Below, in pieces: positions 1 to 17,698 of a stretch of 64,000 bases of DNA. Made by a program: the position numbers and the translations under genes. The notes under the pieces are model-generated. The model was given only the letters and a program-made list of their open reading frames with translations. It searched no databases and was not told the origin of the DNA. Positions within the stretch are counted from its first letter, which is position 1; each line of letters opens with the position of its first letter. The DNA comes from a virus. Where the stretch lies: the IMG/VR virus record IMGVR_UViG_3300045010_000308, positions 9,057 through 73,056 of that record; one strand, written 5' to 3'.

Positions 1-2
1 CA

Positions 3-362: not shown

Positions 363-368
363 TAATCT
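363..368 (+). promoter_or_regulatory. putative -10 element (TAATCT) for a leaderless tape measure transcript
   Basis: TAnnnT hexamer 6 nt upstream of ATG 375, no SD; typical actinobacterial leaderless geometry. Confidence 0.3.
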
Positions 369-374
369 GACCGC

Positions 375-2756
375 ATGGCTGAGCGCAAACTATCCCTGAT
401 CATTCTCGGCAAGGCGACGAGTGCGCTCGCCGCCATGAAGTCGGTGGGTGACGAGGCAGGGTCGCTCGGTAAGAAGGTGACTGATCTGCTGCCGTCGATG
501 AAGACGGTGGCTCTCGCCGGGGCTGCGGCGTTCGGTGCCGTCGCCGCCGCAGCCTATGGTGCGGTGCAGGCTGCGGCTCAGGATGAGCAAAGCCAGAAGA
601 AACTCGCCGACCAGTTGCGGCGCACCACGCAGGCGACCGATGAGCAGATCGCCGCCGTCGAGCAGCACATCTCAAAGCAGATGATGCTCACGGGCGTGAC
701 CGACGACGAGTTGAGACCTGCGATGGCGAATCTGGTGCGGGCGATCGGTGATGTGAACGCTGCTCAGCAGGCACTCATCTTGGCGCAGGACATCTCGGCT
801 GCGACCGGGAAGGACTTGGAGAGCGTGTCGCTTGCGCTCGGCAAGGCGTACAACGGCAGCATCACTGCGCTCACGAAACTCGGTGTGCCGCTCGATCAGG
901 CTGCGGTAAAGTCAAAGAACCTGACGCAACTCACGAAGTCATTACAGGATCAGTTCGGTGGCGCAGCCGCAGACTCTGCCGACACCTTCTCAGGTCGTCT
1001 GCGCATCCTGCAAGTGTCGCTCGGTGAGGCGGTCGAAGGGATCGGCTACGCACTGCTGCCTGCGGCTGAGATGCTGGTGGCGTTCGTACAGAAGCGGGTC
1101 GTGCCCGTCATACAGGCGTTCAGCGACAAACTCGCTGCGGGTGGCGGGCTGCGTGATGCTCTCATCGCAGGTGCGGCACAGATGGGCACCTTCGCATTTC
1201 AGGTGATCAGCATCGCCGAGAAGATAGCGGTCGGCTTCGTCACTCTCGGTAATGCGATCGTTGCGATCGGCAAGCCGATGCTCGTCGTCATCGGTAATCT
1301 CGCCGCTGGTCTAACGCTGCTCTTCACCGGGTCGTTCAGTAAGGCGCAAAAGATGTTCGACACTTTCGAGAAGGCGTATCTCGGACTCGATGCGCTGAAA
1401 GTGAACACTCAGGATGTGGTCGCCGAGTTCGCCAAGTTCCGCACCGAGGTGGTGGCGATGCAGAAACTGAATGCTGCGCTGGCGACCACCGACCTGCTCT
1501 CTCGCCGCTACGGGCAGACGGTGAAGGATACGGGCAGCGCACAAGACGACTTCCTGAAAGTGCTGAAAGGTCTGAGCGAGACGGCGGGTGGTGCGGGCGG
1601 GAAGGTGAAGCAGGTCGCCGACGCTATGAAGACCTACACGGATGCGCTGAGCAAGGCACGGGATGCGACCCGCTCGCAGGCTGATGCGACGAGGGGTGTG
1701 CAGAAGGCGCAGACCGATCTGGCTGCAAAGACAACTGCGGTGGCTGCTGCTCAGGCACGGTTCGACACCGTGATGCGTGGCTTCCCGGCGACGGCTAAGG
1801 AGAGCATCGCAGCGTCTCGCCGTTTCGCCGACGCACAGCGAGGTGTGCGAGACGCAGGTTTGCAGGTCGCCGATGCGGTGCGTGGGGTGCAGGATGCCGA
1901 GCAGCGTCTCGCCGAACTGCGGGCGAAGCAGGCTGATGCGGCGAAGGTGGCGGGTGCTGAGCGGTCGCTGGAACGGTCGAAGTACGGGGTGGAAGAGGCG
2001 AACTTTCGTGTGGCTGACGCTGAGCGGGAACTCGCTGAACTGCGTGCCGACCCGAACGCATCGGCGATCGACCTGCGGCGTGCGGAGATCGCTCTGGCTG
2101 AGGCGAAACTCGGTGTGTCTGATGCGGTGCAGTCGGTCGCCGATGCTGAGAAGCGTCTGGCGGATGAGCGGAACATGGCGGCTACCGCCGACGAGTTGGC
2201 TGACGCTGAGCGCAATCTGGAACGGGCGGAGTATGCGGTGACGGATGCGCTCGATGCGCAGCGGCGTGCGACGGATGAGCAGTCCGATGCGCAGCAGCAT
2301 CTCAACGAGATCACCTACGGTGCGGTCATCGGGTCGGTGGCGCACACGGCTGCGCTGAAAGAACTGGATGATGCGAAGCAGGCGCAGGTCGAGGCATCCG
2401 ATGCGCTCGCCGACGCTCTGCGCCGTGAGGCGGATGCGATGCGTGACCTGATCGCCGCACAGAAGGCTCTGCTGGAAGTGCAGGCGGCGACGAAGCCGAG
2501 GGTGCAGGCGGCTGCTCAGGCTGCGCTCGGTGTGTCGGTCGGTGCGGGCGGGGCGATCAGCGAGGCGATCGGCACCGTGTCAGCATCAGGTACGGCTGCG
2601 GCTGCGCCGGGTGGCACGCTGAATGTGCGGGTGGAGACCAGCCCGTTCGTGAACCCGCAGGATGTGGGGGCAGAGGTGGTCGATGCTCTCGCAGCGTACC
2701 TGCGCAGCAACGGCACGATCCCGATCCCTGTCGGCTCGTTTCTAGGCGTGGTCTGA
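375..2756 (+). CDS. tail tape measure protein (left-hand phage)
   Basis: 793 aa, Ala-rich and helical; N-terminal TMP-like region (QDISAATGKDLESVSLALGKAY, FGGAAADSADTFSG), hydrophobic middle, coiled-coil ADAERxLA repeats; followed by tail-tip gene. Confidence 0.85.
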   Translation: MAERKLSLIILGKATSALAAMKSVGDEAGSLGKKVTDLLPSMKTVALAGAAAFGAVAAAAYGAVQAAAQDEQSQKKLADQLRRTTQATDEQIAAVEQHISKQMMLTGVTDDELRPAMANLVRAIGDVNAAQQALILAQDISAATGKDLESVSLALGKAYNGSITALTKLGVPLDQAAVKSKNLTQLTKSLQDQFGGAAADSADTFSGRLRILQVSLGEAVEGIGYALLPAAEMLVAFVQKRVVPVIQAFSDKLAAGGGLRDALIAGAAQMGTFAFQVISIAEKIAVGFVTLGNAIVAIGKPMLVVIGNLAAGLTLLFTGSFSKAQKMFDTFEKAYLGLDALKVNTQDVVAEFAKFRTEVVAMQKLNAALATTDLLSRRYGQTVKDTGSAQDDFLKVLKGLSETAGGAGGKVKQVADAMKTYTDALSKARDATRSQADATRGVQKAQTDLAAKTTAVAAAQARFDTVMRGFPATAKESIAASRRFADAQRGVRDAGLQVADAVRGVQDAEQRLAELRAKQADAAKVAGAERSLERSKYGVEEANFRVADAERELAELRADPNASAIDLRRAEIALAEAKLGVSDAVQSVADAEKRLADERNMAATADELADAERNLERAEYAVTDALDAQRRATDEQSDAQQHLNEITYGAVIGSVAHTAALKELDDAKQAQVEASDALADALRREADAMRDLIAAQKALLEVQAATKPRVQAAAQAALGVSVGAGGAISEAIGTVSASGTAAAAPGGTLNVRVETSPFVNPQDVGAEVVDALAAYLRSNGTIPIPVGSFLGVV

Positions 2757-2757
2757 G

Positions 2758-4005
2758 GTGGCTACCACGCTCGTCTTCGGTGAGCAGATCACGGTGCTCG
2801 CCGCTCTCGGTTTCATCGTCAGAGAGTTCACGCTCGACAGCAGCACGCTCAACGGTGACGATGTGCTCGACGGCACGCTCGAAGGTCTAGACATCTCGCC
2901 GTATGTGCAGAGCCTGAGCATCAACCGGGGCAGGTCTGACCAGTTCTCGTCATTCAGGGCGGGCACCTGCACGATCGTGCTCAACAACGCCGATCGCCGC
3001 TTCGACCCGATCAACGAAGACTCGCCGTATTGGGATGCGACGACAGACAAGAGCGGGGTGACTCCGAGGCGGCGGGTGCAGGTGTCGTCTGGCAGCACCG
3101 CACTGTTCACGGGGCGCATCACCGACATAGATGTGGCGTATGACTTCTCGAACAGCACGGTGACGATCATCGCCGCCGACGACTTCGTGCTGCTGGCGAA
3201 CACGGTGACGGGTGCGGCGAGCACCCCGACCGCCGAACTGTCGGGTGCCCGTGTCGCACGGGTACTCGACCTGACCGAGGTGGATTATCCGAGCGACACG
3301 AGAAGCATCGACACGGGTGTGGCGACGGTCGGTGCGTATCAGATAGATGCCAACACGAATGTGGCGGCGTATCTCGCACGAGTCGCCGACGCTGAGCAGG
3401 GTCTCTTCTTCATACAGGCTGACGGCTACCTGCGGTTCTCGGATCGCACCAGCGGCGTATTCTCATCGCCTGTCGCCACCTTCGCTGATGACGGGTCAGG
3501 CATCGACTATCAGGGGCTGAGCACGATCTACGGGCAAGAGTTCCTGTTCAACCGTGTGCAGGCGACGACCGAGACGGGCACGGTGCAGGCTGCCGATGAT
3601 GCGGCGAGCCAGACCGAGTTCGGCATCTCCACCTTGTCGCTCGACAACCTGCTGCTCGCCAGCGATGGGGCTGCGCTCACTCTCGCCGAGCATCTGCTCA
3701 GTCTCTACAAAGACCCTGTGTATCGGTTCGACGACCTGCGGCTGGTGGTCTCGGCGATGACATCGGCGAACAGGAATGCGGTGCTCGGCATCGACATGGG
3801 CAGCGTCATCCGCATCACTCGCACCTTCCCGACAGGCAGCCCGGCGACGGTCACCGACGACTACGGGGTGGAGAGGATCACGCACCAGATACTGCCCGAC
3901 CGTCACATCGTCACGCTCGGTCTCTATGTCGCCGATCTCGTCTTCCCGTTCGTGCTCGACGATGCGACCTACGGTGTGCTCGACGCTCATAACGCCGTGA
4001 CCTGA
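2758..4005 (+). CDS. minor tail / tail-tip hub protein
   Basis: 415 aa directly after TMP; motifs SINRGR, GTCTIVLNNADRRFDP, LFTGRI, EQGLFFIQADG recur in siphophage tail-tip proteins. Confidence 0.7.
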   Translation: MATTLVFGEQITVLAALGFIVREFTLDSSTLNGDDVLDGTLEGLDISPYVQSLSINRGRSDQFSSFRAGTCTIVLNNADRRFDPINEDSPYWDATTDKSGVTPRRRVQVSSGSTALFTGRITDIDVAYDFSNSTVTIIAADDFVLLANTVTGAASTPTAELSGARVARVLDLTEVDYPSDTRSIDTGVATVGAYQIDANTNVAAYLARVADAEQGLFFIQADGYLRFSDRTSGVFSSPVATFADDGSGIDYQGLSTIYGQEFLFNRVQATTETGTVQAADDAASQTEFGISTLSLDNLLLASDGAALTLAEHLLSLYKDPVYRFDDLRLVVSAMTSANRNAVLGIDMGSVIRITRTFPTGSPATVTDDYGVERITHQILPDRHIVTLGLYVADLVFPFVLDDATYGVLDAHNAVT

Positions 4006-4007
4006 CC

Positions 4008-4016
4008 TGTTAGTAT
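4008..4016 (+). promoter_or_regulatory. putative extended -10 promoter (TGTTAGTAT)
   Basis: TGnTAnnnT 9 nt upstream of ATG 4026. Confidence 0.3.
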
Positions 4017-4025
4017 CTCAGTTCT

Positions 4026-4304
4026 ATGGCGATAACGGGCACACGACAGTGGGTGGCGGGCGAGACTGTCACGGCTGCGCTCGTGAATCAGTATCTGATG
4101 CGTGGCGTGAAGGTGTTTGCTGATGCTGCGACTCGTGACGCTGCCTACGATGGTGCTGGTGAACCGACTCTGGAAGAGGGCGAAGTGTGTTATCTCGCCG
4201 ACACGAATCAGGTGCTGGCGTACTCAGGTTCGGCGTGGTCGCCCGTAGGGGATGATGCGCCTGACTCTGATCAGATCGTGCTCGCAGCAGCAGTGTTCAG
4301 TTAG
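4026..4304 (+). CDS. module I anchor protein (tail-fibre N-terminal-like)
   Basis: 92 aa; WVAGETVTAALVNQYLM and EGEVCYLADTN resemble tail-fibre attachment segments; ends DSDQIVLAAAVFS, like the ends of 7775 and 9594. Confidence 0.6.
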   Translation: MAITGTRQWVAGETVTAALVNQYLMRGVKVFADAATRDAAYDGAGEPTLEEGEVCYLADTNQVLAYSGSAWSPVGDDAPDSDQIVLAAAVFS

Positions 4305-4316
4305 GAAGGATAAACG

Positions 4317-4679
4317 ATGGCGACATTTAGCAAGATCAAACTGAGCGGCTCGACAGATGGGCGGCTCATCAAGGTGGCGCAGACGGCGACTGCTGGCACG
4401 ACGATTCACACAGGTAGCAGCACGGCGACGACAATCGACGAGGTGTGGCTCTATGCGGTGAACTCTGATACGACTGACCGCAAACTCACGATCGAGTTCG
4501 GTGGTACTTCGTCGCCTGATGATCTCATCGAGCAGACGATCACTGCCGAGTCGGGTCTGCTGCTTGTTGTCGCTGGTCTCGTGATCGTCGGGAACGCTAC
4601 GCCGCTTGTGGTGCGTGCGTTTGCCGCTACTGCGAATGTGGTGATGGTCGGCGGTTATGTGAACCGCATCACCGCATAG
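4317..4679 (+). CDS. module I ~120-aa adaptor-like protein (paralog of 8045 and 9916)
   Basis: SD-like AGGAAGGA; MATFSK..LSGSTDGRLIKV..DEVWLYA..GYVNRITA, clearly homologous to two downstream copies. Confidence 0.75.
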   Translation: MATFSKIKLSGSTDGRLIKVAQTATAGTTIHTGSSTATTIDEVWLYAVNSDTTDRKLTIEFGGTSSPDDLIEQTITAESGLLLVVAGLVIVGNATPLVVRAFAATANVVMVGGYVNRITA

Positions 4680-4694
4680 GCGGCGACTGATGCG
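4656..4694 (+). repeat. 39-bp exact direct repeat, second copy at 8387..8425
   Basis: TATGTGAACCGCATCACCGCATAGGCGGCGACTGATGCG spans the adaptor stop, intergenic gap and adhesin start in modules I and II; a further 23-bp identity at 4725..4747 / 8456..8478. Confidence 0.9.
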
Positions 4695-6345
4695 ATACGG
4701 TGAGCGTTCTCGTTCGGGTACGAAGGTAAGCGGCTGGACTAAGCGTGATGTTGGCAAGCAAACGCTCGCCGTCGAGTTCCTGCTGGTCGGCGGCGGCGGA
4801 GGCGGCGGTTGCGGCGGAGGCGGTGGTGCTTGCGGAGGCGGCGGTGCTGGCGGGTTCGTCACAGGCTCTGGGATTATCGGCAAGACGACCTACACGGTGA
4901 AAGTCGGTGCAGCAGGAGCGGCGGCTACACAAAGCACAGCAGCAGGCGGCAACAACGGCAGCAACGGCACCGCATCATCGTTCATCTCATCTGCCAACGG
5001 CGGAGGCGGCGGCGCAGGAGCCGACGCCACCGTCGCCGTGAATGGTCAAGTCGGCGGTTCGGGCGGCGGTGGAGGCTCAAACAGCGGCGCAGGCGGTAGC
5101 GGTGTCTCAGGCGAAGGCAACAACGGAGCAGCAGCAGTCGGACAAGGTACGGGCGGAGGCGGCGGCGGCAAAGGCAGCGCAGCATCAGGCTCCACAGGCG
5201 GCAGCGGCTCGACCAACGACTTCACGGGTACCAGCATCACTTACTCGGCTGGCGGCAACGCCAGCGGAGGAGCGTCAGGTGCGGCGAACACGGGCAACGG
5301 CGGGCAAGGTAGCGGCACCGCCACAGGCTCGATTGCAGGCGCAGGCGGCTCGGGTCGCGTCGTCATCCGCTACCTCACCAGCGACGCAACTGGCTTGACG
5401 GTGACGGCATCAGGCGGCACATCGTTGCCCGTGGGCCTGTACACGGTCTGGACATTCACCTCGTCGGGAAGTTTCACGGTCACCGGCACGACATCGGTGA
5501 CCGACACGGCGGGTTTTTATGGAACCGCCACAGGCGGAACGGTGATCGCCGACCCGGCGGTGATCAACGGGCAAAACTACAGGATACTGCAGTTCACGGA
5601 ATCGGGCACGCTGGCCGTGACGAAGGCCGGGCTGTTCGACGTGTTGATGGTCGGCGGCGGCGGATCCGGTGGTTTCAGACCCAACGCTGGTAGTGCTGGC
5701 GGCGGTGGCGGTGGTGGCGTCGTCGAACAAACTTTCTTTGCGAGCGCAAACCAGACCGTGACTGTCGGTGCGAAAGGTATCGCGGTCACAACACAAGGTT
5801 CGGGTAATCGTGGTTCGTTCAGTCGTGTTGGTTCTCTTGCCGCCGGTGGTGGCGGCGGTGGGATAGGAACCGATGGCATTGGGTACGTGAATGGCGATAG
5901 TGCTGGTTGTGGCGGTGGCGGTGTAGGTAGCAACTCGTTCGGTCTTCGCACAGGCGGCTTGTCGCTGATTACACAAGGCAACAACGGTGGCGACGGTAGT
6001 GGAGCGTCAAGCACATCGGGTTCGGGCGGTGGCGGCGGCAGTACTTCAGTCGGCGGCAACGCTGGTCCTACGACAGGCGGAACAGGCGGCACGGGAACGG
6101 CGACGACGACCTTCACCGGTGGCACGGTAGTCACTCACATCGGTTGCGGCGGCGGCGGTGCGACAGGTTCAGGCGGCACGGGCGGAACGGCAGGCAACTC
6201 ATCTGGCGGAAATGGCGGTGTCGCAGGAACTTCCGCAGGTAGCAACGCAACTACTTCCTTCTTCGGTTCAGGCGGAGGCGGCGGTGGTGCTACTACATCC
6301 GGCGCAGGTTCGGACGGCGTCGTGTTCATCAGGTTCAAAGTATGA
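4690..6345 (+). CDS. glycine-rich (polyglycine) adhesin-like protein with two Gly-rich domains
   Basis: 551 aa; VEFLLVGGGGGGG..GGSGRVVIRY followed by FDVLMVGGGG..GSDGVVFIRFKV. Confidence 0.75.
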   Translation: MRYGERSRSGTKVSGWTKRDVGKQTLAVEFLLVGGGGGGGCGGGGGACGGGGAGGFVTGSGIIGKTTYTVKVGAAGAAATQSTAAGGNNGSNGTASSFISSANGGGGGAGADATVAVNGQVGGSGGGGGSNSGAGGSGVSGEGNNGAAAVGQGTGGGGGGKGSAASGSTGGSGSTNDFTGTSITYSAGGNASGGASGAANTGNGGQGSGTATGSIAGAGGSGRVVIRYLTSDATGLTVTASGGTSLPVGLYTVWTFTSSGSFTVTGTTSVTDTAGFYGTATGGTVIADPAVINGQNYRILQFTESGTLAVTKAGLFDVLMVGGGGSGGFRPNAGSAGGGGGGGVVEQTFFASANQTVTVGAKGIAVTTQGSGNRGSFSRVGSLAAGGGGGGIGTDGIGYVNGDSAGCGGGGVGSNSFGLRTGGLSLITQGNNGGDGSGASSTSGSGGGGGSTSVGGNAGPTTGGTGGTGTATTTFTGGTVVTHIGCGGGGATGSGGTGGTAGNSSGGNGGVAGTSAGSNATTSFFGSGGGGGGATTSGAGSDGVVFIRFKV

Positions 6346-6536
6346 ACAAGAACTATTCCGCAAAGGTCGTGAACAGCGTCGTCACCGAGATCATCGTTGC
6401 GGATCATTCATGGGCGACAGCGAACCTTGACGGCGAGTGGCATGACTTGGGCGGCGAACCGCTCACCGTTGCCGTAGGCGATACCTATGACGCGGTGAAC
6501 GATGTGTTTATATCATCCCAGGTGGATAATCCATGA
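6342..6536 (+). CDS. small chaperone-like protein (GDTYDAVNDVF family)
   Basis: 64 aa; ATGA overlap with the upstream gene; shares the GDTYDAxNDVF motif with 6621, 9314 and 12091. Confidence 0.65.
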   Translation: MNKNYSAKVVNSVVTEIIVADHSWATANLDGEWHDLGGEPLTVAVGDTYDAVNDVFISSQVDNP

Positions 6537-6620
6537 GCGTCTCGAATGTCGCTTATGTCGGGGTTCGGGGCCTAAGAATGGAATACAATACGACATCCAC
6601 ACAACAGGAGGCATAGAGCT

Positions 6621-6872
6621 ATGGCACACTTCGCAAGAGTCGAAAACGGCACCGTGCGAGAGGTCATCGTGATCGGCAACGGCGACTGCGGCGGCGGAGA
6701 GTTCCCGGCAAGCGAGTCGGTCGGCCAGGCGTTCATCGCCAAGATCGGCTTGTCGGGCGAGTGGCGGCAGACCTCTTACAACGCGAACTTTCGCGGCAAG
6801 TACGCCGGCATCGGCGACACGTACGACGCAGAAAACGACGTCTTCGTGTCCCCGGCAACCGGCGTGGAATAA
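6621..6872 (+). CDS. small chaperone-like protein (GDTYDAxNDVF family)
   Basis: 83 aa; AGGAGG SD; MAHFARV..WRQTSYNANFRGKYAGIGDTYD. Confidence 0.75.
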   Translation: MAHFARVENGTVREVIVIGNGDCGGGEFPASESVGQAFIAKIGLSGEWRQTSYNANFRGKYAGIGDTYDAENDVFVSPATGVE

Positions 6873-6880
6873 AGACAACT

Positions 6881-7561
6881 ATGCCGTTCACGTCCGTCTT
6901 GGGCGCCTCGTCGGTCATCAAGCCAGGCGTGTGCACCTCGTCCACTCGCCCGACTGCGCCCTATGTCGGGCAGCTGGTGTTCGAGACCGACACGAACCGT
7001 CTTGTGGTGTTCACGGCCTCTGGCTGGGTGTATCAAACTGCGACTGGAGCGCCTGGATTGGTCCTCGTCAAGTCGGAGACTTCGTTTTCTGGGTCGTCGA
7101 GCGTGACCGCCGACGGCGTGTTCACCAGCACCTACACCAACTACAGGGTTGACCTGCGCTACGAAACGTCGGGGTCGGGCAACGAAGTAAGACTCAGACT
7201 GCGAACAGGCGGCACGAGCACAAGCAGCAACTACAACGTCCAGCAAATGATATTCGATCACGCAACATCGTTCTCGTCACGTCAATCGTCACTAACAAGT
7301 TTTCCTTTGTCGGGTCAAACCAACGGGTCGTTCGTCAGCGCGGTGACGTGCACGATTTTCGGACCGCAACTCACGTCACCGACGCAGTTCATCGCCAACA
7401 ATGCACCCAACCAAGGTGCTTACACGACGCCGCAGGCTGGCCAGAACAGCGGCAACCAATCGTCGTCAACGTCGTTCGACGGCATAGAGTTCTTCCCGAC
7501 ATCTGGGTCGCCGTCCACGATGACCGGCTCCTACACGATCTACGGATTGGCAAAGTCATGA
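6881..7561 (+). CDS. putative short tail-fibre / receptor-binding protein
   Basis: Start reassigned to ATG 6881 (MPFTSVLG); CTSSTRPTAPYVGQLVFETDT attachment-like motif, then a Ser/Thr-rich beta domain ending GSYTIYG. Confidence 0.6.
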   Translation: MPFTSVLGASSVIKPGVCTSSTRPTAPYVGQLVFETDTNRLVVFTASGWVYQTATGAPGLVLVKSETSFSGSSSVTADGVFTSTYTNYRVDLRYETSGSGNEVRLRLRTGGTSTSSNYNVQQMIFDHATSFSSRQSSLTSFPLSGQTNGSFVSAVTCTIFGPQLTSPTQFIANNAPNQGAYTTPQAGQNSGNQSSSTSFDGIEFFPTSGSPSTMTGSYTIYGLAKS

Positions 7562-7773
7562 CCTACCGCATCAACGACAACGGCACCGACCGCGACATGA
7601 CGGCGGCAGAAGCCGCCATCTACGAGCAGGCGGTCGCCGACGCACTAGCCCAGGCTGCGGCGGGGGCGGCTGCCCTGGAAGCAGCCGTCGCCGCAAGAGC
7701 ATCCGCAAAAGCCAAGCTCGCCGCGCTGGGATTGACCGAGGCAGAGATCAACGCCCTCACGGGAGGAATGTAA
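7558..7773 (+). CDS. small tail-fibre-associated protein
   Basis: 71 aa from ATG 7558 (ATGA overlap); RDMTAAE..AKAKLAALGLTEAEINAL. Confidence 0.6.
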   Translation: MTYRINDNGTDRDMTAAEAAIYEQAVADALAQAAAGAAALEAAVAARASAKAKLAALGLTEAEINALTGGM

Positions 7774-7774
7774 G

Positions 7775-8035
7775 GTGCCGATAGACTTCCCCAACTCGCC
7801 GTCAAACAACCAGGTCTACGCCGTCGGCAACAGGTCGTGGGTCTACGCCACAGCAACGAATACTTGGACATTGCAGTCTTCTGCGGTGCTTGGAGCCAAT
7901 ACTGTCACCACCTCAGAGATAGCAGATGGTACGATAGTCAACGCAGACATCTCTGCTGCGGCGGCGATCAACACGACAAAGATAACCAACTGGGAAGATG
8001 ACCAAGTCGTCATCTCCAGCCAGATCTTTGGATAA
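7775..8035 (+). CDS. module II anchor protein (MPIDFPNSP type)
   Basis: 86 aa; N-terminus shared with 9594; ends WEDDQVVISSQIFG. Confidence 0.65.
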   Translation: MPIDFPNSPSNNQVYAVGNRSWVYATATNTWTLQSSAVLGANTVTTSEIADGTIVNADISAAAAINTTKITNWEDDQVVISSQIFG

Positions 8036-8044
8036 GGAGGCAGC

Positions 8045-8410
8045 GTGGCGACCTACAGCAAGGTTCAACTCAGCGGCGGTGCGGGTGGCAGGCTCATCAA
8101 GGTCGCCGCAACGGCGACGGCTGGTACCGCCATTCACACGACCGGTGTATCGACCAGCACACTCGACGAGGTCTGGCTGTATGCGCAAAATGACCACACG
8201 TCCGACGTGCTGCTGACGATCGAGTTTGGCGGCACCTCGTCGCCAGATGACTTGATCCGCCAGACAATCACGTCTCGCGCTGGCTTGCTGCTGGTCGTTC
8301 CAGGGCTTCTTTTGGCGGGCGACGGCTCAAGTGGCCGTGCGGTGCGCGCGTTCGCGGCGACTGCGAACGTGGTGATGGTCGGCGGCTATGTGAACCGCAT
8401 CACCGCATAG
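8045..8410 (+). CDS. module II ~120-aa adaptor-like protein
   Basis: TAAGGAGG SD; paralog of 4317, same C-terminus VRAFAATANVVMVGGYVNRITA. Confidence 0.75.
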   Translation: MATYSKVQLSGGAGGRLIKVAATATAGTAIHTTGVSTSTLDEVWLYAQNDHTSDVLLTIEFGGTSSPDDLIRQTITSRAGLLLVVPGLLLAGDGSSGRAVRAFAATANVVMVGGYVNRITA

Positions 8411-8420
8411 GCGGCGACTG

Positions 8421-9314
8421 ATGCGTTTCGGTGAGCGCACTCGTTCAGGTACTTTGGTAAGCGGCTGGACTAAGCGTGCTGTGTCGACTGGTCTTCCCCT
8501 AGCGGTTGAGTATCTAGTCATCGCTGGTGGCGGCGGTGGTGGCACGGGTGGCGGCGGCGGTGGTGGTGCGGGTGGTTACAGAAATGGAACAGTGGGTGAG
8601 ACGACAGGCGGCGGCGGCGGCGCAGAGGCGGCGATGCCAATCACGGCTAATGTTTTGTACACCATTACCATCGGTGGTGGTGGTGCTTCTGCAACCAGCG
8701 GCTCCGATAGTTCGATTTCTGGTACTGGGCTATCAACAATAACATCCACTGGTGGCGGCAGAGGTGGAAACTTTGTTACCGCAGGAAGCACTGGTGGTTC
8801 TGGCGGCGGCGGCGGCAAAGACGGCGGTGGTAGTGGCGCAAGAACAACATCACCCGTGATTCAGGGAAATGTTGGTGGTGCGAGCCTGGGCGGTGCAACC
8901 TTTGGTTCTGGCGGCGGCGGCGGTGCTGGCGCTGTCGGTTCGGCAGGACTAGTCAACGAAGCAGGAGGTAACGGAGGCAACGGGCTTTCATCTTCGATTT
9001 CAGGGTCATCAGTTACACGCGCTGGCGGCGGCGGCGGCGGCCACAACGGCAATCAAGGTACTGGTGGTTCTGGCGGCGGCGGAAATGGTAGTGGTACTAC
9101 TTCAGGCAGCCCCGGCTCAGTGAATACAGGTAGTGGTGGTGGTGGTGGGAGTTACCAGGGCGGTTCTGGTGGTTCTGGTGGTAAGGGAGTCGTCATTATC
9201 AGACAACCCATCACGGCAAAGTCTCCGACAACACTGACAGGCGCAACGACGACCGATACGGCAACGCATCGTGTCTTCACCTTCAACGACAGCGGAACTA
9301 TCAGGTGGTCATAA
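8421..9314 (+). CDS. glycine-rich adhesin-like protein
   Basis: 297 aa; N-terminus MRFGERTRSGTLVSGWTKR matches 4690; VEYLVIAGGGGGG..GGKGVVIIR. Confidence 0.75.
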   Translation: MRFGERTRSGTLVSGWTKRAVSTGLPLAVEYLVIAGGGGGGTGGGGGGGAGGYRNGTVGETTGGGGGAEAAMPITANVLYTITIGGGGASATSGSDSSISGTGLSTITSTGGGRGGNFVTAGSTGGSGGGGGKDGGGSGARTTSPVIQGNVGGASLGGATFGSGGGGGAGAVGSAGLVNEAGGNGGNGLSSSISGSSVTRAGGGGGGHNGNQGTGGSGGGGNGSGTTSGSPGSVNTGSGGGGGSYQGGSGGSGGKGVVIIRQPITAKSPTTLTGATTTDTATHRVFTFNDSGTIRWS

Positions 9315-9586
9315 TGGCGTACTTCGCTGAACTCGACGACACGAACACGGTGCTGAGAGTGATCAGCGTCAGCAACGATGTGTGCGGTGAACCGACGCTC
9401 GCATTCCCCGATACCGAAGCCGCTGGTCGTGCGTTCATCGCCAACACGCTGAAACTTGGCGGCACTTGGAAGCAGACTTCGTACAACGCCAACTTCCGTG
9501 GCAAGTACGCAGGCATCGGGGACACTTATGATGCGGTGAACGACGTCTTCGTTGCGCCGACGCCGCCAGGCGGCGAGATAGGATAG
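9314..9586 (+). CDS. small chaperone-like protein (GDTYDAVNDVF family)
   Basis: 90 aa from ATG 9314 (TAATG overlap); WKQTSYNANFRGKYAGIGDTYDAVNDVF. Confidence 0.75.
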   Translation: MAYFAELDDTNTVLRVISVSNDVCGEPTLAFPDTEAAGRAFIANTLKLGGTWKQTSYNANFRGKYAGIGDTYDAVNDVFVAPTPPGGEIG

Positions 9587-9593
9587 GCTACCG

Positions 9594-9899
9594 ATGCCGA
9601 TTGATTTTCCGAACAGTCCGACGGTCAATGACGTCTACTCAGCCGGCGGGAGAAGCTGGACCTGGAACGGGACGTCTTGGGTGCTGAACGCCTATGTCGG
9701 CGTCGTCCCGGCGGGAGCGGTCGGCACGACCGAGCTGGCGAACAACGCCGTCACTTCTTTGAAGTTGGGACCCACCGGTGCGGTCAACGGCCAGGCCTTG
9801 TTGGCCAACTCTTCGACGGCTACTGGGTTGGAGTGGGGTCAGGCAGGGTCTCCTTCCGATGATGCAAGCGCGGTTTTGGGTACTCAAGTTTTCAGCTGA
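9594..9899 (+). CDS. module III anchor protein (MPIDFPNSP type)
   Basis: 101 aa; ends PSDDASAVLGTQVFS. Confidence 0.65.
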   Translation: MPIDFPNSPTVNDVYSAGGRSWTWNGTSWVLNAYVGVVPAGAVGTTELANNAVTSLKLGPTGAVNGQALLANSSTATGLEWGQAGSPSDDASAVLGTQVFS

Positions 9900-9915
9900 A
9901 GATTGGAGCAGATAG

Positions 9916-10281
9916 ATGGCAACATTCACGAAGATGAAGTTCAGCGAATCTACCGATGGTCGCCCCATCAAGGTCGGGGCGACGAGCATCGCTTCGGGCA
10001 CGCCGATTCACGCTGGTTCTCCTACGGCGACGACTTACGACGAGATCTGGCTGTATGCGATGAACTCCTCGGCTTCGTCGGTGAAGCTGACGGTGGGGTG
10101 GGGCGGCACCACCGACCCCGATGATTTGATTGAACTCACGGTTCTTGCCGAGGCTGGCTTGGTGACGGTTGCCCCCGGCATGCTCATCAAGGGCAACGCG
10201 ACTCCGCTCGTGGTGAAGGCGGCGGCGGGTACGGCGAACGTGATCACGATTCACGGATTTGTCAACCGAATCACGGTGTAG
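9916..10281 (+). CDS. module III ~120-aa adaptor-like protein
   Basis: Paralog of 4317 and 8045 (STDGRPIKV, DEIWLYA, GFVNRITV). Confidence 0.75.
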   Translation: MATFTKMKFSESTDGRPIKVGATSIASGTPIHAGSPTATTYDEIWLYAMNSSASSVKLTVGWGGTTDPDDLIELTVLAEAGLVTVAPGMLIKGNATPLVVKAAAGTANVITIHGFVNRITV

Positions 10282-10284
10282 CTG

Positions 10285-11202
10285 ATGGCTACGGCTCGCC
10301 GCCAACTCGGGTACGTTTCGTCGTTGACGACGCAGTCCGTCCCCCCGGGCGGCTTGCCGGTTGAGTGCCTCGTCATCGGCGGCGGCGGCGGTGGCGGCAG
10401 GATGCACGGTGGCGGCGGTGGTGCTGGCGGCTATGTATGTTCGGTTGTCGGGGAGAACTCAGGTGGCGGCGCGGTCGCCGCAACTACCTTCTCGCTGAAT
10501 AGGAACCTGACCTACGGAGTGGTGGTTGGGGGCGGCGGCTCAGGCTCAACTTCCGCCAGCACGAGAGGCGGCAGCGGCACGAACAGCGTCTTCGTCGTGG
10601 CGGCGATAGGCGGCGGTGGCGGAGGCAGTAGCTCCGGAGAGAGTCCAGGCGGGCCAGGCGGTTCGGGTGGCGGCGGCGCAGCAAACGCGACCAACACGGG
10701 CGGCGCAGGAACGAGCCACCAAGGTTTCGCAGGTGGCGCAGGTGCGCCGAGCGGCGGCAATCCCTCAGGTGGCGGTGGCGGTGGTGCCGGTGCGGTCGGC
10801 GTTCAAGGCAACTTGTCGGGATACGCAGGCGCAGGCGGCGCAGGTGTCTCATCAAGCATCACGGGTTTGGCGGTCACTCGCGGCGGCGGCGGCGGTGGCG
10901 GCGGCCACAACGCCGCAGATAGGGGCGGCGCAGGCGGCTCGGGTGGCGGCGGCGCAGGCTCAGGAGTAGCTGTCGTAGGTTCACCAGGCTCACCGAACAC
11001 AGGCGGCGGCGGCGGCGGTAGCGGTCACGACGGCGGCAACAACTTAGGTGGGAACGGCGGCTCGGGCATCGTCGTTGTCCGCTACCTGACTTCTGCCGCA
11101 TCAGGTCTCACCGTCACCGCAACAGGCGGCGGCACCTCCGCTCCTAGCGGTTCTTACACGGTCTGGACATTCACATCGTCGGGTACGTTGGCGGTGACGT
11201 GA
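10285..11202 (+). CDS. glycine-rich adhesin-like protein
   Basis: 305 aa; N-terminal LGYVSS motif; C-terminus RYLTS..YTVWTFTSSG matches the middle of 4690. Confidence 0.75.
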   Translation: MATARRQLGYVSSLTTQSVPPGGLPVECLVIGGGGGGGRMHGGGGGAGGYVCSVVGENSGGGAVAATTFSLNRNLTYGVVVGGGGSGSTSASTRGGSGTNSVFVVAAIGGGGGGSSSGESPGGPGGSGGGGAANATNTGGAGTSHQGFAGGAGAPSGGNPSGGGGGGAGAVGVQGNLSGYAGAGGAGVSSSITGLAVTRGGGGGGGGHNAADRGGAGGSGGGGAGSGVAVVGSPGSPNTGGGGGGSGHDGGNNLGGNGGSGIVVVRYLTSAASGLTVTATGGGTSAPSGSYTVWTFTSSGTLAVT

Positions 11203-11239
11203 TGGCACGCCTCGCATCGCCGTCAAGTGAGGTGGCGGA

Positions 11240-12094
11240 ATGACCCGCTCGTACCTCGGCTATGTTTCTTCGCAGACGACGGGCACGGTTGCGGTTGACA
11301 TCCCCTACGGCGTAGCGACGGGCGGCTCATCGGCTTCACGAACCATCGGTGGTCAGACCTACACGGTGCTGACCTTCTCGTCAGACGACAACCTTGTCGT
11401 GTCTAAGGCTGGTTTGTTCGACGTGTTGCTTGTCGGTGGTGGCGGCGGCGGCGGGTCAGGTTCAGACCCGCAATCTGGCGGCGGTGGCGGCGCAGGCGCA
11501 TTAGTTGGATTTGCAGCCACGACCACGATCTACCTTCAGGCTGCGACCTACGCTGTTGACGTCGGTGCAGGCGGCGCTGGATACACCAACTCAAATGGGT
11601 TTTCGACTGGCGCTGCGTCATACATCGGCAACGTCATTTCGGCTTGTGGCGGCGGCGGCGGCGCTTGTCAAGATGTTGCTTTGGCAGGCAGCGGCGGCTC
11701 GGGCGGCGGCAGACAAACTGGCATGAACGTAGGTGGATATTCAGTCGATGAAACATTCGGCAACCGCGGCGGAGTCGGCACGGGCAATCATGGCGCTGGT
11801 GGCGGCGGTGGATACGGCGGAGTCGGTGGCAACGCGGCTGGAACGACGGGCGGTTCGGGCGGCAACGGAATCGACGTGTCGACTTGGGGAACAAGCGCAA
11901 GTACCGACAACATTGCGGCAGGCGGCGGCGGCTCGGGTTCAACTGCAGGTGGCGCAGCAGGCACAGGCGGCGTAGCAGGTTCCACAGGCGATGGCAACAG
12001 CGCCACAACTGCTGGCTCTGGCGGCGGCGGCGGTCGTGGTTCGGCTGGCGGCAACGGTGCGGCTGGCAAAGTATGGGTGAGGTTCAAGGTATGA
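11240..12094 (+). CDS. glycine-rich adhesin-like protein
   Basis: 284 aa; LGYVSS N-terminus; KAGLFDVLLVGGGG..VWVRFKV matches the second half of 4690. Confidence 0.75.
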   Translation: MTRSYLGYVSSQTTGTVAVDIPYGVATGGSSASRTIGGQTYTVLTFSSDDNLVVSKAGLFDVLLVGGGGGGGSGSDPQSGGGGGAGALVGFAATTTIYLQAATYAVDVGAGGAGYTNSNGFSTGAASYIGNVISACGGGGGACQDVALAGSGGSGGGRQTGMNVGGYSVDETFGNRGGVGTGNHGAGGGGGYGGVGGNAAGTTGGSGGNGIDVSTWGTSASTDNIAAGGGGSGSTAGGAAGTGGVAGSTGDGNSATTAGSGGGGGRGSAGGNGAAGKVWVRFKV

Positions 12095-12312
12095 GCGACA
12101 CACTGACGTACTTCGCCAAAGTTGAGAACGGTGTCGTCACCGATGTTCGTGTCGTGACGTGGGATTTCTTGTGCGCCAACCCTGACCGCTACGGCGACAG
12201 TTCGCTATGGGTAGAAACCTTTCACGACAACTCCCAACGCGGCAAATACGCAGGCATAGGCGATACTTATGATGCGGTGAACGATGTGTTCGTTGCGCCG
12301 ACGCCGCCGTAA
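12091..12312 (+). CDS. small chaperone-like protein (GDTYDAVNDVF family)
   Basis: 73 aa from ATG 12091 (ATGA overlap); YFAKVENGVV..RGKYAGIGDTYDAVNDVF. Confidence 0.7.
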   Translation: MSDTLTYFAKVENGVVTDVRVVTWDFLCANPDRYGDSSLWVETFHDNSQRGKYAGIGDTYDAVNDVFVAPTPP

Positions 12313-12341
12313 GCGCGCCTCGCGACAAAGCGCAGAGAAGA

Positions 12342-14111
12342 GTGGCACGCCTGAAGATCGCCGTCTACACGATCGCGCTCAACGAGAAGAAGTTCGTTGA
12401 CCCGTGGTATGAGTCGGCTAAAGACGCAGACTACCTGCTGATCGCCGACACCGGCTCGACCGACGGGACGGTCGAGCGCGCGCGAGAGCTCGGGATCAAC
12501 GTCGCGCAGATCACGGTCAAGCCGTGGCGGTTCGACGACGCGCGCAACGCGTCGCTCGCGCTGCTGCCGGCGGACATCGACTTCTGCGTCGCGCTCGACA
12601 TGGACGAGGTCCTCGTGCCTGGCTGGCGTGAGCACCTCGAGAAGGCGCCGCCCGGCACGACCCGCCCGCGCTACAAGTACGTCTGGAGCTGGAACACAGA
12701 CGGCAGCGAGGGACTCGTGTACGGCGCAGACAAGGTCCACGCTCGCAGCGGGTACCGGTGGGTGCACCCGGTGCACGAGGTCTTGGCGCCGACGGACGGA
12801 GAAGAGACCCAGAGCTGGGTCGGCATGGAGGTCCACCACTTCCCCGACCGCTCGAAGTCGCGCGGGCAGTACCTGCCGCTGCTCAAGAAGGCCGTCGACG
12901 AGAGGCCGATGGACGACCGCAACGCGTACTACTACGCGCGTGAGCTGTTCTTCTACGGCCAGGCCGAAGACGCACGGCGCGAGTTCAAGCGCCACCTCGC
13001 GCTGCCGACCGCGACGTGGCGCGCCGAGCGCGCGGCCTCGATGCGGTACCTCGCTCAGCTCGAGCACGACGAGGCCGAGGCCTGGCTGCTGCGCGCGTGC
13101 GCCGAGGCGCCGGAGTTCCGCGAGCCCTGGGTCGAGCTCGCTCGGCACTACTACGACCGGCAGTCGTGGGAAGACTGCCTGTCGGCCGCGAGGCGGGCGC
13201 TCACGATCACAGAGAAGCCGCTGCTGTACATCAACGACGCCGCCGCGTGGAGCTCGCTGCCGCACGACCTCGCCAGCATCGGCGCCTGGCACGCCGGGCA
13301 GAGAGGCGCGGCGGTCGAGCACCTGCGCGGCGCGCTGCGGGTCGAGCCGGGCAGCGAGCGCCTCCAGGCGAACCTCGCCATGATGCTGCGGGTGACGCAC
13401 CCGGAGCGCGCGGTGGCCGTCGTCCCGTCGAGGTCGAACGTCGAGGGCTGCATGCTCGTCCTCGAGCGCCTCGAGAGAGACCCGCAGGTCAGCGCGGTCG
13501 TGCTCGTCGCGGACGGAGACGAGGCCTGCCGGACCTACGGAGCGCTGCTCTCCGAGCGCGGGCCGGAGCTGCGGAAGGTCCGGCTCGAGCGCGTCGAGCG
13601 CGGCGCCGGCATCCACGCGATGTGGAACATCGGCGTCGAGGCCGCCCGGCGCGAAAAATCCGCGGTTGCCCTAGTGAACGACGACGTCACCGTCGCCGAC
13701 GACACCATAGGGAGCCTCGTGTCGCTGCTCGCGTACGACAGGTCGCTCGGGCTCGTCTGCCCGGCCTACGACTACCGCAAGTTCACGGACATCACGCAGG
13801 ACGTGTCGACGGTGTGCAACGGCCGGTACGACGGCAGCGGGGGGCTCGCCGGGTTTTGCATGGTCTTGGCCGCAGACATCGTGCAGCGGTTCAGGTTTGA
13901 CGAGTCGATGAAGTGGTGGTACGGAGACAACGACGTGCTGCTGCACGTCACGCGCAACGAGAAGCGCCGCGCGGCGATCACGAGCCTCGCTCGGTGCAGC
14001 GGCAACTCGTCGGCGACCGTAGACAACGACCCGCCCGAAGACTTCTGGAAGGTCGTCCAAGACGACAAGCTCAAGTTCTACGTGAAGTGGGGCATCTGCG
14101 ATGCACGGTGA
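12342..14111 (+). CDS. glycosyltransferase, GT2 + TPR + second GT2-like domain
   Basis: IAVYTIALNE, DTGSTDGT, FDDARNASL, LDMDE (DxD), HPVHE; TPR-like helices; C-terminal VALVNDDV..WWYGDND. Confidence 0.85.
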   Translation: MARLKIAVYTIALNEKKFVDPWYESAKDADYLLIADTGSTDGTVERARELGINVAQITVKPWRFDDARNASLALLPADIDFCVALDMDEVLVPGWREHLEKAPPGTTRPRYKYVWSWNTDGSEGLVYGADKVHARSGYRWVHPVHEVLAPTDGEETQSWVGMEVHHFPDRSKSRGQYLPLLKKAVDERPMDDRNAYYYARELFFYGQAEDARREFKRHLALPTATWRAERAASMRYLAQLEHDEAEAWLLRACAEAPEFREPWVELARHYYDRQSWEDCLSAARRALTITEKPLLYINDAAAWSSLPHDLASIGAWHAGQRGAAVEHLRGALRVEPGSERLQANLAMMLRVTHPERAVAVVPSRSNVEGCMLVLERLERDPQVSAVVLVADGDEACRTYGALLSERGPELRKVRLERVERGAGIHAMWNIGVEAARREKSAVALVNDDVTVADDTIGSLVSLLAYDRSLGLVCPAYDYRKFTDITQDVSTVCNGRYDGSGGLAGFCMVLAADIVQRFRFDESMKWWYGDNDVLLHVTRNEKRRAAITSLARCSGNSSATVDNDPPEDFWKVVQDDKLKFYVKWGICDAR

Positions 14112-14613
14112 CGTGCTGGCGTGGGTGTCACGCGCGATCGCAGGCTGCCGGCGCACGGGGCCTGGCGCGCACGTCTTAGAGTTCGGCAGCCTAGACATCA
14201 ACGGCAGCGTCAGGCCGCTGTTCGCAGAGCTGGTGTCTGGCGGAGGTTCGTACCTCGGTATCGACGTGCAAGAAGGCCCGGGAGTCGACCTGGTGGCCGA
14301 CGCAAGCGCCTACAAGAGCGACACGCGGTGGGACTTCGTCGTCTGCTGCGAGGTGTTCGAGCATACGGCGCTGTGGCCGAAGCTCGTCGCTAACGCGCAC
14401 TCGCTCCTCGTGCCGGGCGGAGTCTTCATCGCGACGATGGCCGGCGAGGGCCGGCCGCCGCACTCTGCGATCGACGAAAACCCGATCCGCGCCTGGGAAT
14501 ACTACAAGAACGTGACCGGGCCGATGCTAGACGAGAAGCTCGCGTCGGCGGGATTCACGAGCCGCGAGGTCGACGTCTACCGCACCGACACGCGGTGCTG
14601 GGCGGTCAAGTAG
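14101..14613 (+). CDS. class I SAM-dependent methyltransferase
   Basis: VLEFGSLDING, YLGIDVQEGPGVD, WDFVVCCEVFEH, LVPGGVFI. Confidence 0.8.
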   Translation: MHGDVLAWVSRAIAGCRRTGPGAHVLEFGSLDINGSVRPLFAELVSGGGSYLGIDVQEGPGVDLVADASAYKSDTRWDFVVCCEVFEHTALWPKLVANAHSLLVPGGVFIATMAGEGRPPHSAIDENPIRAWEYYKNVTGPMLDEKLASAGFTSREVDVYRTDTRCWAVK

Positions 14614-15118: not shown

Positions 15119-15121
15119 GGC

Positions 15122-15785: not shown

Positions 15786-15862
15786 CGACCCTCCTGCTGC
15801 CTCGCGCCGGGGGAAACCGCATGTTTGCCTTTTTGCATCACGAGAAGCGATCTAGAAGCACG

Positions 15863-16375: not shown

Positions 16376-16407
16376 GTCGCTCCGTGCCGGTGTGTCGTTA
16401 CGAACCT

Positions 16408-16416: not shown

Positions 16417-16449
16417 GGTCTTGCTTGGCCCCGAGGGGATGACCTGCTC

Positions 16450-17691: not shown

Positions 17692-17698
17692 GCTAGCT

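Follow-up and report, generated by a model that had tools for sequence, protein, structure and literature searches.

How are receptor-binding proteins joined to tail fibres when a single stretch of viral DNA encodes three similar sets of both? The question is raised by 64,000 nt (hereafter the window; G000:C1:9057-73056, G+C ~64%) of a 73,056-bp IMG/VR virus record, G000. Between positions 4026 and 12312 of its plus strand, the same gene order is met three times: a short fibre protein, here called the anchor (86-101 aa), an adaptor of 120/121 aa, one or two Gly-rich proteins, and one or two small proteins whose ends read ...GIGDTYDA.NDVF... (Table 1). A preliminary description of the window, made from its letters, had proposed that a C-terminal peptide, or tag, of the anchor recruits the adaptor, which in turn captures interchangeable Gly-rich adhesins through their N-terminal tags. 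All open reading frames (ORFs) of that order are present, the two kinds of terminal peptide read as it had quoted them, and both the order and the peptides recur across 135 non-redundant modules. We give a probability of roughly 0.55 to the reading that the adaptor is a structural plug-and-socket connector that would bind the fibre on one side and the adhesins on the other.

The module and its recurrence in viral genomes

The three adaptors of the window match phrog_30535, a family of unknown function, over its full length (profile positions 1-125). All four Gly-rich proteins exceed the gathering threshold of PF21722 (Gly_rich_2; 24.3 bits), scoring 79.5, 30.6, 57.3 and 56.1 bits, with adhesin I consisting of two such domains fused, and all five small proteins match phrog_7759 and/or phrog_14370. 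In each module the start of the small GDTYD gene overlaps the stop of the preceding adhesin gene. The adaptor, anchor and small proteins matched no Pfam or NCBIfam family, and megablast of the whole region against 50,697 phage records returned no match.

To find further modules, IMG/VR was searched by pattern and by tblastn with the adaptor alignment, and then scanned a second time with adaptor III. Adaptor relatives are encoded at at least 574 of the 598 or more pattern matches of the first scan and at 117 of 125 in the second. The best 80 loci of each scan (160) were analysed, yielding 135 non-redundant modules after removal of duplicates. The module order was found in most of the 160 loci, on source contigs of 4 to 210 kb; the three-fold order in the window is more than chance. 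Among the 135 modules, upstream ORFs of 38-791 aa end in a hydrophobic residue, F and zero to two further residues in 116 cases, while nine have the same core with a DTVEQ extension, seven have other endings and three modules are without an upstream ORF. A downstream ORF is present in 128 modules, at a median distance of 7 nt from the adaptor, and is Gly-rich and PF21722-like in 106 of them. The small GDTYD protein lies at most 3.5 kb away in 92 modules; in 26 others the locus ends within 1.5 kb of the adaptor.

All eight near-complete genomes of 35-40 kb contain the adaptor once, and complete genomes of 92 and 210 kb carry one adaptor module each. The two capsid proteins of the window had no match on five large adaptor-bearing contigs (G011-G015). 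As had been supposed from the window, the module sits in unrelated phage backbones, from 35 to 210 kb. Among GenBank phages, the adaptor was found at E <= 1e-3 only in the Pseudanabaena phages Pam2 and PA-SR01 and in EBPR podovirus 3.

Comparison of loci with near-identical adaptors revealed where the exchange takes place. Similarity between L068 and L071 is confined to the adaptor gene (positions 0-362, 89%), that between L034 and L024 breaks at +362, and L046 and L050 are 95% identical from -1471 to +363, differ through the adhesin including its tag, and are alike again from +1486. Adaptors are 65-96% identical between contigs on which the adhesin DNA cannot be aligned. The exchange of adhesins is one of cassettes, with the breaks lying at the adaptor borders, which agrees with the swapping of host-range parts put forward in the preliminary description.

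Terminal peptides and the adaptor residues that vary with them

When aligned on the terminal F (115 sequences), the anchor tail is acidic at -11 to -9, has Q, A or N at -8, V or I at -6 (106/115), L, I or V at -5 (115/115), Q at -2 (78/115) and V, I or L at -1 (112/115). On the far side of the adaptor, the downstream protein of 115 of the 135 modules carries a tag of one of five related classes: N1 (motif RFGxRTRsg..VS.W; 45 modules), N2 (R(R)xLGYVS; 45), N3 (GGKAISGGAL.PR.RRGNT.QV..YW; 16), N4 (FRQDRTNPS.AVSNW; 7) and N5 (TDRSR; 2). Thirteen modules fall into none of these classes and are listed as other, and seven are listed as none.

The tags are independent of the protein body behind them. 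A recognisable tag (N2, N3 or N4) stands on at least 9 of the 15 complete downstream proteins that are not Gly-rich, and both proteins of two-adhesin modules carry the same tag class (9/9). In fused two-domain adhesins the inner domain is untagged and begins at the first strand of the domain (3/3, adhesin I included). Furthermore, the tags are conserved as peptides and not as DNA, since third codon positions diverge far more than the first and second: identity at codon positions 1, 2 and 3 is 0.51, 0.63 and 0.35 over the last 13 anchor codons (n = 54) and 0.57, 0.60 and 0.43 over the 16 codons of the N1 tag (n = 30).

These properties bear on a first alternative, namely, that the adaptor gene and its flanking ends provide only homology for recombination, as linker sequences, and that the proteins do not dock via tags. 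Breakpoints at the adaptor borders would be expected in this case, the DNA best conserved between modules I and II runs through the 3' end of the adaptor gene into the adhesin tag (89% over 145 nt), and the same conservation seems to have misled the assembler, as discussed below. Yet the peptide sequence of the tags is maintained despite diverging third codon positions, the tag is missing from the inner domains of fused adhesins, and DNA homology needs no complete, well-folded and strongly constrained domain of 120 aa. Nor would such homology fit the covariation described next, which is limited to a few non-contiguous residues, and we consider mere linkers very improbable.

The connector reading had led to the expectation that adaptors vary together with the tags they serve, and for the adhesins this was borne out at localised adaptor residues (numbered as in adaptor III). 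Position 84 is L in 44 of 45 N1 modules and in all N3 (16/16) and N4 (7/7) modules, as opposed to T, A, C or N in 44 of 45 N2 modules. Position 115 is Y in 41/45 N1 and F in 43/45 N2 modules, and position 80 is S in 35/45 N1, A in 42/45 N2 and N in 15/16 N3 modules. Mutual information with the N2 label peaks at positions 74, 77, 78, 80, 83, 84, 111 and 115 (0.48-0.91 of a maximum of 0.98) and does not exceed 0.21 at the equally variable positions 85-110, indicating that the covariation is not a simple linkage gradient towards the adhesin gene. In a tree built without the covarying columns, tag class and residues switch together at several places, L117 being the exception. The conservative independent-pairs test, with 4 contrasts on well-supported branches and 11 on all branches, renders the covariation of adaptor and tag suggestive; the control positions 36, 41 and 108 changed in the expected direction in 0.2-1.6 of 4 contrasts.

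Predicted adaptor fold, putative partners and the proposed connector

AlphaFold2 run on a 121-sequence alignment produced an eight-stranded all-beta model of the adaptor with a pLDDT of 96.7 (a run with three sequences only, pLDDT 47.7, was discarded), and the adaptor is thus predicted to fold as an eight-stranded jelly roll. Searched with Foldseek against the PDB, the model resembled the Sf6 tail-needle knob (E 7e-4, TM 0.46), Pgp3 (TM 0.48), BclA (TM 0.41) and a TNF-like lectin, and it also resembles the carbohydrate-binding modules CBM35 and CBM22. A second fold search returned Ena3A (Z 8.0) and Ena1B (Z 7.7), values within the tool's range for unrelated best matches. The nearest predicted viral structures are gp13 (TM 0.91) and gp14 (TM 0.84) of EBPR podovirus 3, followed at TM ~0.6 by many proteins of ~110 aa, some of which bear the name 'virion structural protein' (MaMV-DC, S-TIM5, S-SCSM1), and by C-terminal domains of C1q, BclA and collagen-like proteins.

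The adaptor family comprises 1,728 clusters at E <= 1e-3 and 1,112 at E <= 1e-10 among 1.84 billion representatives. It has no match among PDB sequences, and in the ESM Atlas only viral 'hypothetical protein' clusters were seen. Among the best 150 members are 130 stand-alone proteins and 20 of more than 135 aa; the 13 long members that were read include tandem duplicates, loop insertions, N-terminal extensions and one C-terminal lectin-domain fusion. In P0003 a coiled, fibre-like N-terminus precedes the adaptor domain, P0037 has a Laminin_G_3 lectin domain behind it (Pfam E 3.5e-16), and gp13 of EBPR podovirus 3 is a fibre-like N-terminus fused to an adaptor domain, with gp14 as a second adaptor. 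These fusions to fibre-like N-termini and to a lectin domain are the main reason for preferring a structural role over that of a chaperone.

T4 gp38, T4 gp57A and Pam3 gp25 are assembly factors that leave, and the adaptor could be one of their kind, recognising the terminal peptides, uniting or trimerising fibre and adhesin, and departing without becoming part of the virion. The adaptor gene adjoins fibre genes, the Pam2 homologue ORF69 went undetected in virions, and fibre-tip chaperones are usually small and encoded beside their clients, according to excerpts of PMC9608196. However, a factor that departs would hardly be expected to share one chain with fibre-like N-termini and with a lectin domain, as the adaptor domain does, and the adaptor also occurs as tandem duplicates and with inserted domains. 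Its fold is like that of distal knobs and unlike known Tfa-type chaperones, and the known position of tip chaperones, directly after the tip gene, is occupied by the small GDTYD protein. We judge a departing factor unlikely.

The likeness of the fold to CBM35/CBM22, the TNF-like lectin and the Sf6 needle knob agrees with another role, that of a knob at the fibre tip that would itself bind a receptor or glycan, with the Gly-rich proteins as separate fibres attached elsewhere; the domain indeed stands at the C-terminal end of the fibre-like gp13 of EBPR podovirus 3. Such a role appears very unlikely, as the adaptor is far more conserved (65-96%) than its neighbours, the opposite of what would be expected of a host-specificity determinant, the adhesin tags covary with it, and P0037 has its lectin domain fused behind the adaptor.

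The S16/T2-type gp38 adhesin is a polyglycine-II sandwich at the tip of the T-even long tail fibre gp37. A profile of 32 of the present adhesins, searched against all PDB sequences, matched only Pam3 gp24 (7ypx; E 0.9, 11.9 bits), aligning profile positions 88-254 with residues 104-286 and reaching the common ...VVIVRY-type last strand; gp38 itself (PDB 6F45) gave no match at E <= 1 in this search, in which low-complexity glycine runs are limiting. Likewise, tblastn with adhesin II returned no match, probably owing to low-complexity filtering. It is plausible, by analogy, that the Gly-rich adhesins are counterparts of gp38. They are without an N-terminal attachment domain of the gp38 type, with only ~20 residues preceding the Gly-rich domain and the hidden Markov model (HMM) match starting at residue 1-4.

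Rather than the adaptor, it is the Gly-rich domain that the small GDTYD protein accompanies. Pelagibacter phage HTVC025P encodes it behind gp43, a fibre to which a Gly-rich domain is fused, and Pontimonas phage phiPsal1 encodes it behind an unannotated Gly-rich ORF, both phages being without a clear adaptor. No Pfam family (32 members searched), no PDB sequence at E <= 10 and no NCBIfam entry matched the small protein, and no sequence relation to known Tfa families was found. Its gene lies directly downstream of the fibre-tip gene, as do those of Tfa and of chaperones of the Pam3 gp25 type, and we put the odds that it is an assembly helper of the Gly-rich domain at about even. The phiPsal1 ORF (298 aa, PF21722-like, E 4e-38 to the adhesin profile) lies at L088:3018-3914 (MG835450 ~15857-16753), where GenBank annotates 022 and 023 ('no BlastP matches') in other frames. 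With this ORF included, the phiPsal1 order is anchor-like 020, the weak adaptor relative 021 (E 1e-3), the Gly-rich ORF and small protein 024, which is the module order. A GenBank note links phiPsal1_021 to an HTVC010P virion protein; tblastn at E <= 1e-3 gave no such link.

For the structural connector, we propose the following assembly. The short fibre protein would attach to the tail by its N-terminal part, and the peptide of ~12 residues in which it ends (acidic residues, V/I-L, two variable residues, Q, V/I-F and one last residue) would be taken up by the phrog_30535 jelly roll. The adaptor, probably a trimeric knob like other TNF/C1q-type jelly rolls, would also take up the ~20-residue N-terminal peptide of one or two receptor-binding proteins (RBPs), usually PF21722 adhesins. 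If the strand order is that of a canonical jelly roll, residues 70-91 would form the F-G hairpin at the open edge of the sandwich, an edge that would suit strand addition; the peptides probably add beta-strands there, with residues 74-84 and 111-115 setting the tag compatibility groups. The small GDTYD protein, translationally coupled to the last adhesin, would most likely help the Gly-rich domain to fold or assemble. Conservation of adaptor and tags would allow recombination at the adaptor borders to replace an adhesin together with its tag, and host-range parts could thereby move between unrelated phages. The data show the gene order, the tags and their conservation as protein, the class of fold, the fusions, the breakpoints and the covariation; from these we infer binding, stoichiometry, strand addition, presence in the virion and what the small protein does.

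Several observations weigh against this proposal. Similarity to solved structures, at TM 0.4-0.5 and Z <= 8, is at the generic jelly-roll level with no specific solved relative, and the F-G edge was placed from an assumed canonical strand order and not from coordinates. In the independent-pairs test, position 84 was as expected in 3.9 of 4 contrasts and never opposite, which in this underpowered test corresponds to p = 0.125, and the N2 module L117 keeps L84. The anchor tag showed no clear covariation peak with the adaptor (mutual information score MIp <= 0.25), so that the expected covariation held for the adhesin side and not for the anchor side. Near-identical adaptors, moreover, precede tags of different classes, N1- and N3-type (L046/L050 and L068/L071). 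The strict pairing of cognate adaptors and adhesins envisaged in the preliminary description is rejected by these two pairs; the socket would be permissive, with specificity at the level of groups at most.

Pam2 provides the remaining points against a virion connector of this kind: virion mass spectrometry flags neither its adaptor homologue ORF69 nor the adjacent ORF68 and ORF70 as detected (PMC9382816 Table S2), in a list that is also without other tail proteins, and the neighbours of the homologue carry no tags. In the Pam2 locus (L084:6031-9386, ORF69-70), the gene behind the adaptor homologue encodes a protein of 1,013 aa, which is not rich in glycine. Other partners may serve distant relatives of the adaptor.

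A farther-reaching version of the connector, possible in our view and rather doubtful, would make the adaptor a lineage-independent universal socket that accepts one beta-strand each from the fibre C-terminus and the adhesin N-terminus in a donor-strand-like manner, with a residue code at 74-84/111-115 and compatibility groups of the RFGxRTR..W, LGYVS and GGKAISGG types. Ena and chaperone-usher pili have joints of this donor-strand type, which in the present case would connect three different proteins. If so, host-range cassettes would be transferable among phages of 35 to 210 kb with no capsid genes in common, and the presence of up to three differently loaded fibres on one phage would be explained.

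Docking of exchangeable RBPs by short N-terminal peptides is known already; new are the parts, that is, the 120-aa jelly roll, the second conserved peptide on the fibre C-terminus, and PF21722 adhesins with a dedicated small partner. No description of this adaptor system was found in the open-access literature and bioRxiv. In phages K1-5, K1E and SP6, a separate adapter, gp37, with a T4 gp10-like domain docks two tailspikes by N-terminal peptides of 7 and 11 residues (PMC6872550, in excerpts). As there, the adaptor stands alone and exchangeable RBPs would dock by short conserved N-terminal peptides, an arrangement that explains host-range exchange. Unlike in K1-5, the adaptor here is a single 120-aa jelly roll that would hang on the fibre by the fibre's C-terminal peptide, and the payloads are Gly-rich adhesins, not depolymerase spikes, in aquatic and actinobacterial phages of 35-210 kb. 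No T4 gp10 chain was among the matches listed by Foldseek-PDB or VIA-wide, an absence from the list that does not exclude a relation. In Klebsiella phages KP32 and KP34 and in G7C-type systems, the branching domain is part of RBP1 and a conserved docking peptide part of RBP2 (excerpts of PMC6872550, PMC13352976 and PMC13579863). Conserved N-terminal docking peptides on variable RBPs, re-use of units across phage groups and a plug-and-play logic are shared with these phages; the socket, however, is there a domain inside the first RBP and here a separate gene between fibre and adhesin, and the conserved fibre C-terminal peptide has no counterpart in those systems as excerpted.

Resemblance to gp37/gp38 lies in a separately encoded Gly-rich adhesin at the fibre tip, with variable distal loops presumed to bind the receptor, whereas gp38 binds gp37 directly by its own N-terminal domain with no adaptor between (PMC9608196, in part). 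According to the same excerpts, Pam3 gp24 combines a helical stalk, a TNF-like domain and a Gly-rich domain resembling S16 gp38, and needs the downstream chaperone gp25. A putative helper gene directly behind the adhesin gene is common to both systems, and gp24 is the nearest solved sequence match (E 0.9). Unlike the present adhesins, gp24 docks to the baseplate by its own long helix in that account, and gp25 is Tfa-like, whereas the small GDTYD protein matches no Tfa. Finally, the adaptor model resembles the jelly-roll knob of collagen-like fibres of the BclA/C1q type, and the N-terminus of anchors II and III recurs in collagen-like fibre proteins of phage DSL-LC01; in contrast to such fibres, stalk and knob are here separate polypeptides, which would be joined via the terminal peptide.

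If the adaptor is a connector, a large share of freshwater and marine phages would use one standard part to attach their receptor-binding proteins, among them phages of streamlined Actinobacteria, with relatives in cyanophage and SAR11-phage genomes. It would become possible to name three abundant families whose function is unknown (phrog_30535, the tags of PF21722 proteins, and phrog_7759/phrog_14370), to recognise the gene that carries host specificity in metagenomic phage genomes, and to account for the movement of adhesins between unrelated phages. The compact natural scaffold of 120 aa and two peptides would also lend itself to fibre engineering, comparable to the Klebsiella docking-peptide systems now so used. 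At the same time, metagenome assemblers can fuse different phages at the conserved adaptor, of which G000 is apparently an example.

Integrity of the contig and neighbouring genes

A caveat attached to the preliminary description was that the three modules might come from separate genomes collapsed by the assembler; it applies in part, probably to module I and not to the array. G000 holds two complete virion gene sets of different lineages, one phiPsal1-like on the plus strand and one DSL-LC01-like on the minus strand. The left arm encodes TerL, portal, protease, major capsid, head-tail adaptor, terminator and major tail proteins (G000:437-9418, +) and continues in window 375-4679 with tape measure, 415-aa protein and anchor I; among cultured phages, phiPsal1 is nearest to it (TerL 39.6% identity; further values in Table 1). 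From 12348 to its end, the window is collinear with DSL-LC01 (glycosyltransferase 59.7%, DNA polymerase 83.5% and capsid 76.5% identity), a metagenome-assembled circular phage of 129 kb according to an excerpt of PMC10611076, and a separate set of genes for portal, capsid, tail tube, tape measure, Dit and fibre lies in this right part (12342-64000). Contigs of the adaptor-I clade (L004, L009, L010, L013 and L015) contain a single module followed by holin-like and lysis-like genes, as in phiPsal1.

Contigs of public lake-metagenome runs (X1, X5 and X6) were compared with the window. In both X5 and X6, a contig of 7,395 nt spans window 1-4652 and stops within adaptor I. In X1, depth is 2.9-3.7 for pieces on 1027-3645 and 14.5-15.7 for those on 7744-12138 and 12247-18000; in X5 and X6, depths are equal on both sides (32.4 vs 30.8 and 11.2 vs 11.4, respectively). 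No listed piece of the public runs bridges 4652 to ~5900 or 12138 to 12216, holes that prove nothing alone. Phages of the phiPsal1-like and DSL-LC01-like lineages were probably joined by the assembler inside the conserved adaptor I, near 4652, in which case module I of the window is composite. Given the two structural gene sets and the probable join, it is doubtful that anchor I and adaptor I occur together with the rest.

The three-module array is, however, real in the large-phage lineage. An independent 104-kb contig (G012) starts inside a third adaptor and continues with a gly1-like gene, the 226-aa gene, the 71-aa gene, module II and module III, and a 72-kb contig (G011) has the same order from the 226-aa gene onward. 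In G005, the modules are followed by the same glycosyltransferase and methyltransferase as in the window. The module grammar is independent of contig G000.

DSL-LC01 itself (L170, 108221-116782) is without an adaptor; upstream of its glycosyltransferase, which is shorter than that at the corresponding place in the window, are collagen-like proteins, two of them with the N-terminal motif of anchors II and III, and a 2,853-aa protein named 'ALK tyrosine kinase receptor' by the depositors. The CheckV completeness estimate of 55% fits a 129-kb relative of the right part only. Many short 'joints' with sides of 20-30 nt in Gly-rich genes were dismissed as repeat artefacts. In X5 and X6, a contig at depth ~41 joins the end of the small-protein gene (9553) to the start of adhesin IIIb (11217), with sides of 30 nt; it may represent a co-occurring variant without anchor III, adaptor III and adhesin IIIa, or a repeat artefact.

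Table 1. Features of the left part of the window, with positions counted from its first letter.
Feature	Position	Strand	Basis and remarks
Tape measure protein of the left (phiPsal1-like) structural arm	375..2756	+	weak PHROG tape-measure matches; follows TerL, portal, major capsid and major tail genes in G000:437-9418
Distal tail or hub-like protein, 415 aa	2758..4005	+	phrog_5313, phrog_1887, phrog_177; 34% identity to phiPsal1_019, E 2e-61
Anchor I, short fibre protein, 92 aa, C-terminus DSDQIVLAAAVFS	4026..4304	+	39% identity to phiPsal1_020, E 2e-12; C-terminal motif in 116/135 upstream ORFs
Adaptor I, predicted jelly roll, 120 aa	4317..4679	+	phrog_30535 E 6e-43; AlphaFold2 model with 8 strands, pLDDT 96.7; 96% identical to L004 adaptor
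Most conserved DNA of modules I and II: adaptor 3' end, gap, adhesin tag	4607..4751	+	repeat search; partner 8338-8482, 89% over 145 nt
Adhesin I, 551 aa, N-terminal tag MRYGERSRSGTKVSGWTKR and two PF21722 domains	4690..6345	+	HMM domains 1-264 and 307-550, the second without tag
Small GDTYD protein Ia, 64 aa	6342..6536	+	phrog_14370; alignment; start overlaps adhesin stop
Small GDTYD protein Ib, 83 aa	6621..6872	+	phrog_7759, E 1e-20
Fibre-like protein without C-terminal tag, 226 aa, outside the order described earlier	6881..7561	+	weak PHROG tail matches; homologues at same place in G011, G012 (39.6% identity)
71-aa protein after the 226-aa protein	7558..7773	+	no family match; 52% identical homologue at same place in G011, G012
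Anchor II, N-terminus MPIDFPNSP, C-terminus EDDQVVISSQIFG	7775..8035	+	76% identity to G011, G012 counterparts
Adaptor II	8045..8410	+	phrog_30535 E 3.5e-36; 71% identity to adaptor I
Adhesin II, tag MRFGERTRSGTLVSGWTKR and PF21722 domain	8421..9314	+	Pfam, HMM domain match
Small GDTYD protein II, 93 aa	9305..9586	+	phrog_7759 E 1e-23; relatives in Pelagibacter, Synechococcus and Pontimonas phages
Anchor III, C-terminus SDDASAVLGTQVFS	9594..9899	+	N-terminus matches N-termini of DSL-LC01 collagen-like proteins
Adaptor III, T84/F115 variant that goes with LGYVS-type tags	9916..10281	+	phrog_30535 E 4e-57; residue tallies; 63% identity to adaptor I
Adhesin IIIa, tag MATARRQLGYVSSLTTQ and PF21722 domain	10285..11202	+	Pfam, tag alignment
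Adhesin IIIb, tag MTRSYLGYVSSQTT, short beta-segment, PF21722 domain	11240..12094	+	Pfam, HMM domain match
Small GDTYD protein III, 73 aa	12091..12312	+	phrog_14370 E 5e-12; 89% identity to G011, G012 counterparts
Glycosyltransferase (589 aa) and methyltransferase directly 3' of module III	12342..14613	+	Pfam, PHROG; same pair after modules in G005 (52%, 54%)

The 589-aa glycosyltransferase carries tetratricopeptide (TPR) repeats and its neighbour is an S-adenosylmethionine (SAM) methyltransferase; the pair in G005 is located at G005:C1:26434-28146. The two enzymes may modify fibre or adhesin proteins. Within the window, no tRNA genes were found. Farther right, on the minus strand, are two ORFs unusually long for the functions they resemble, one of 1,435 aa (49711-54018) with portal- and protease-like regions and one of 2,904 aa (55107-63821) with a stretch like a DNA polymerase exonuclease. 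The 226-aa and 71-aa genes that separate module I from module II are a conserved pair, found also in G011 and G012 (loci L171 and L172). By eye, the C-terminus of the 71-aa protein (AKLAALGLTEAEINAL) resembles that of HTVC025P gp42 (L086:1239-2314), which likewise comes after a fibre-like gene.

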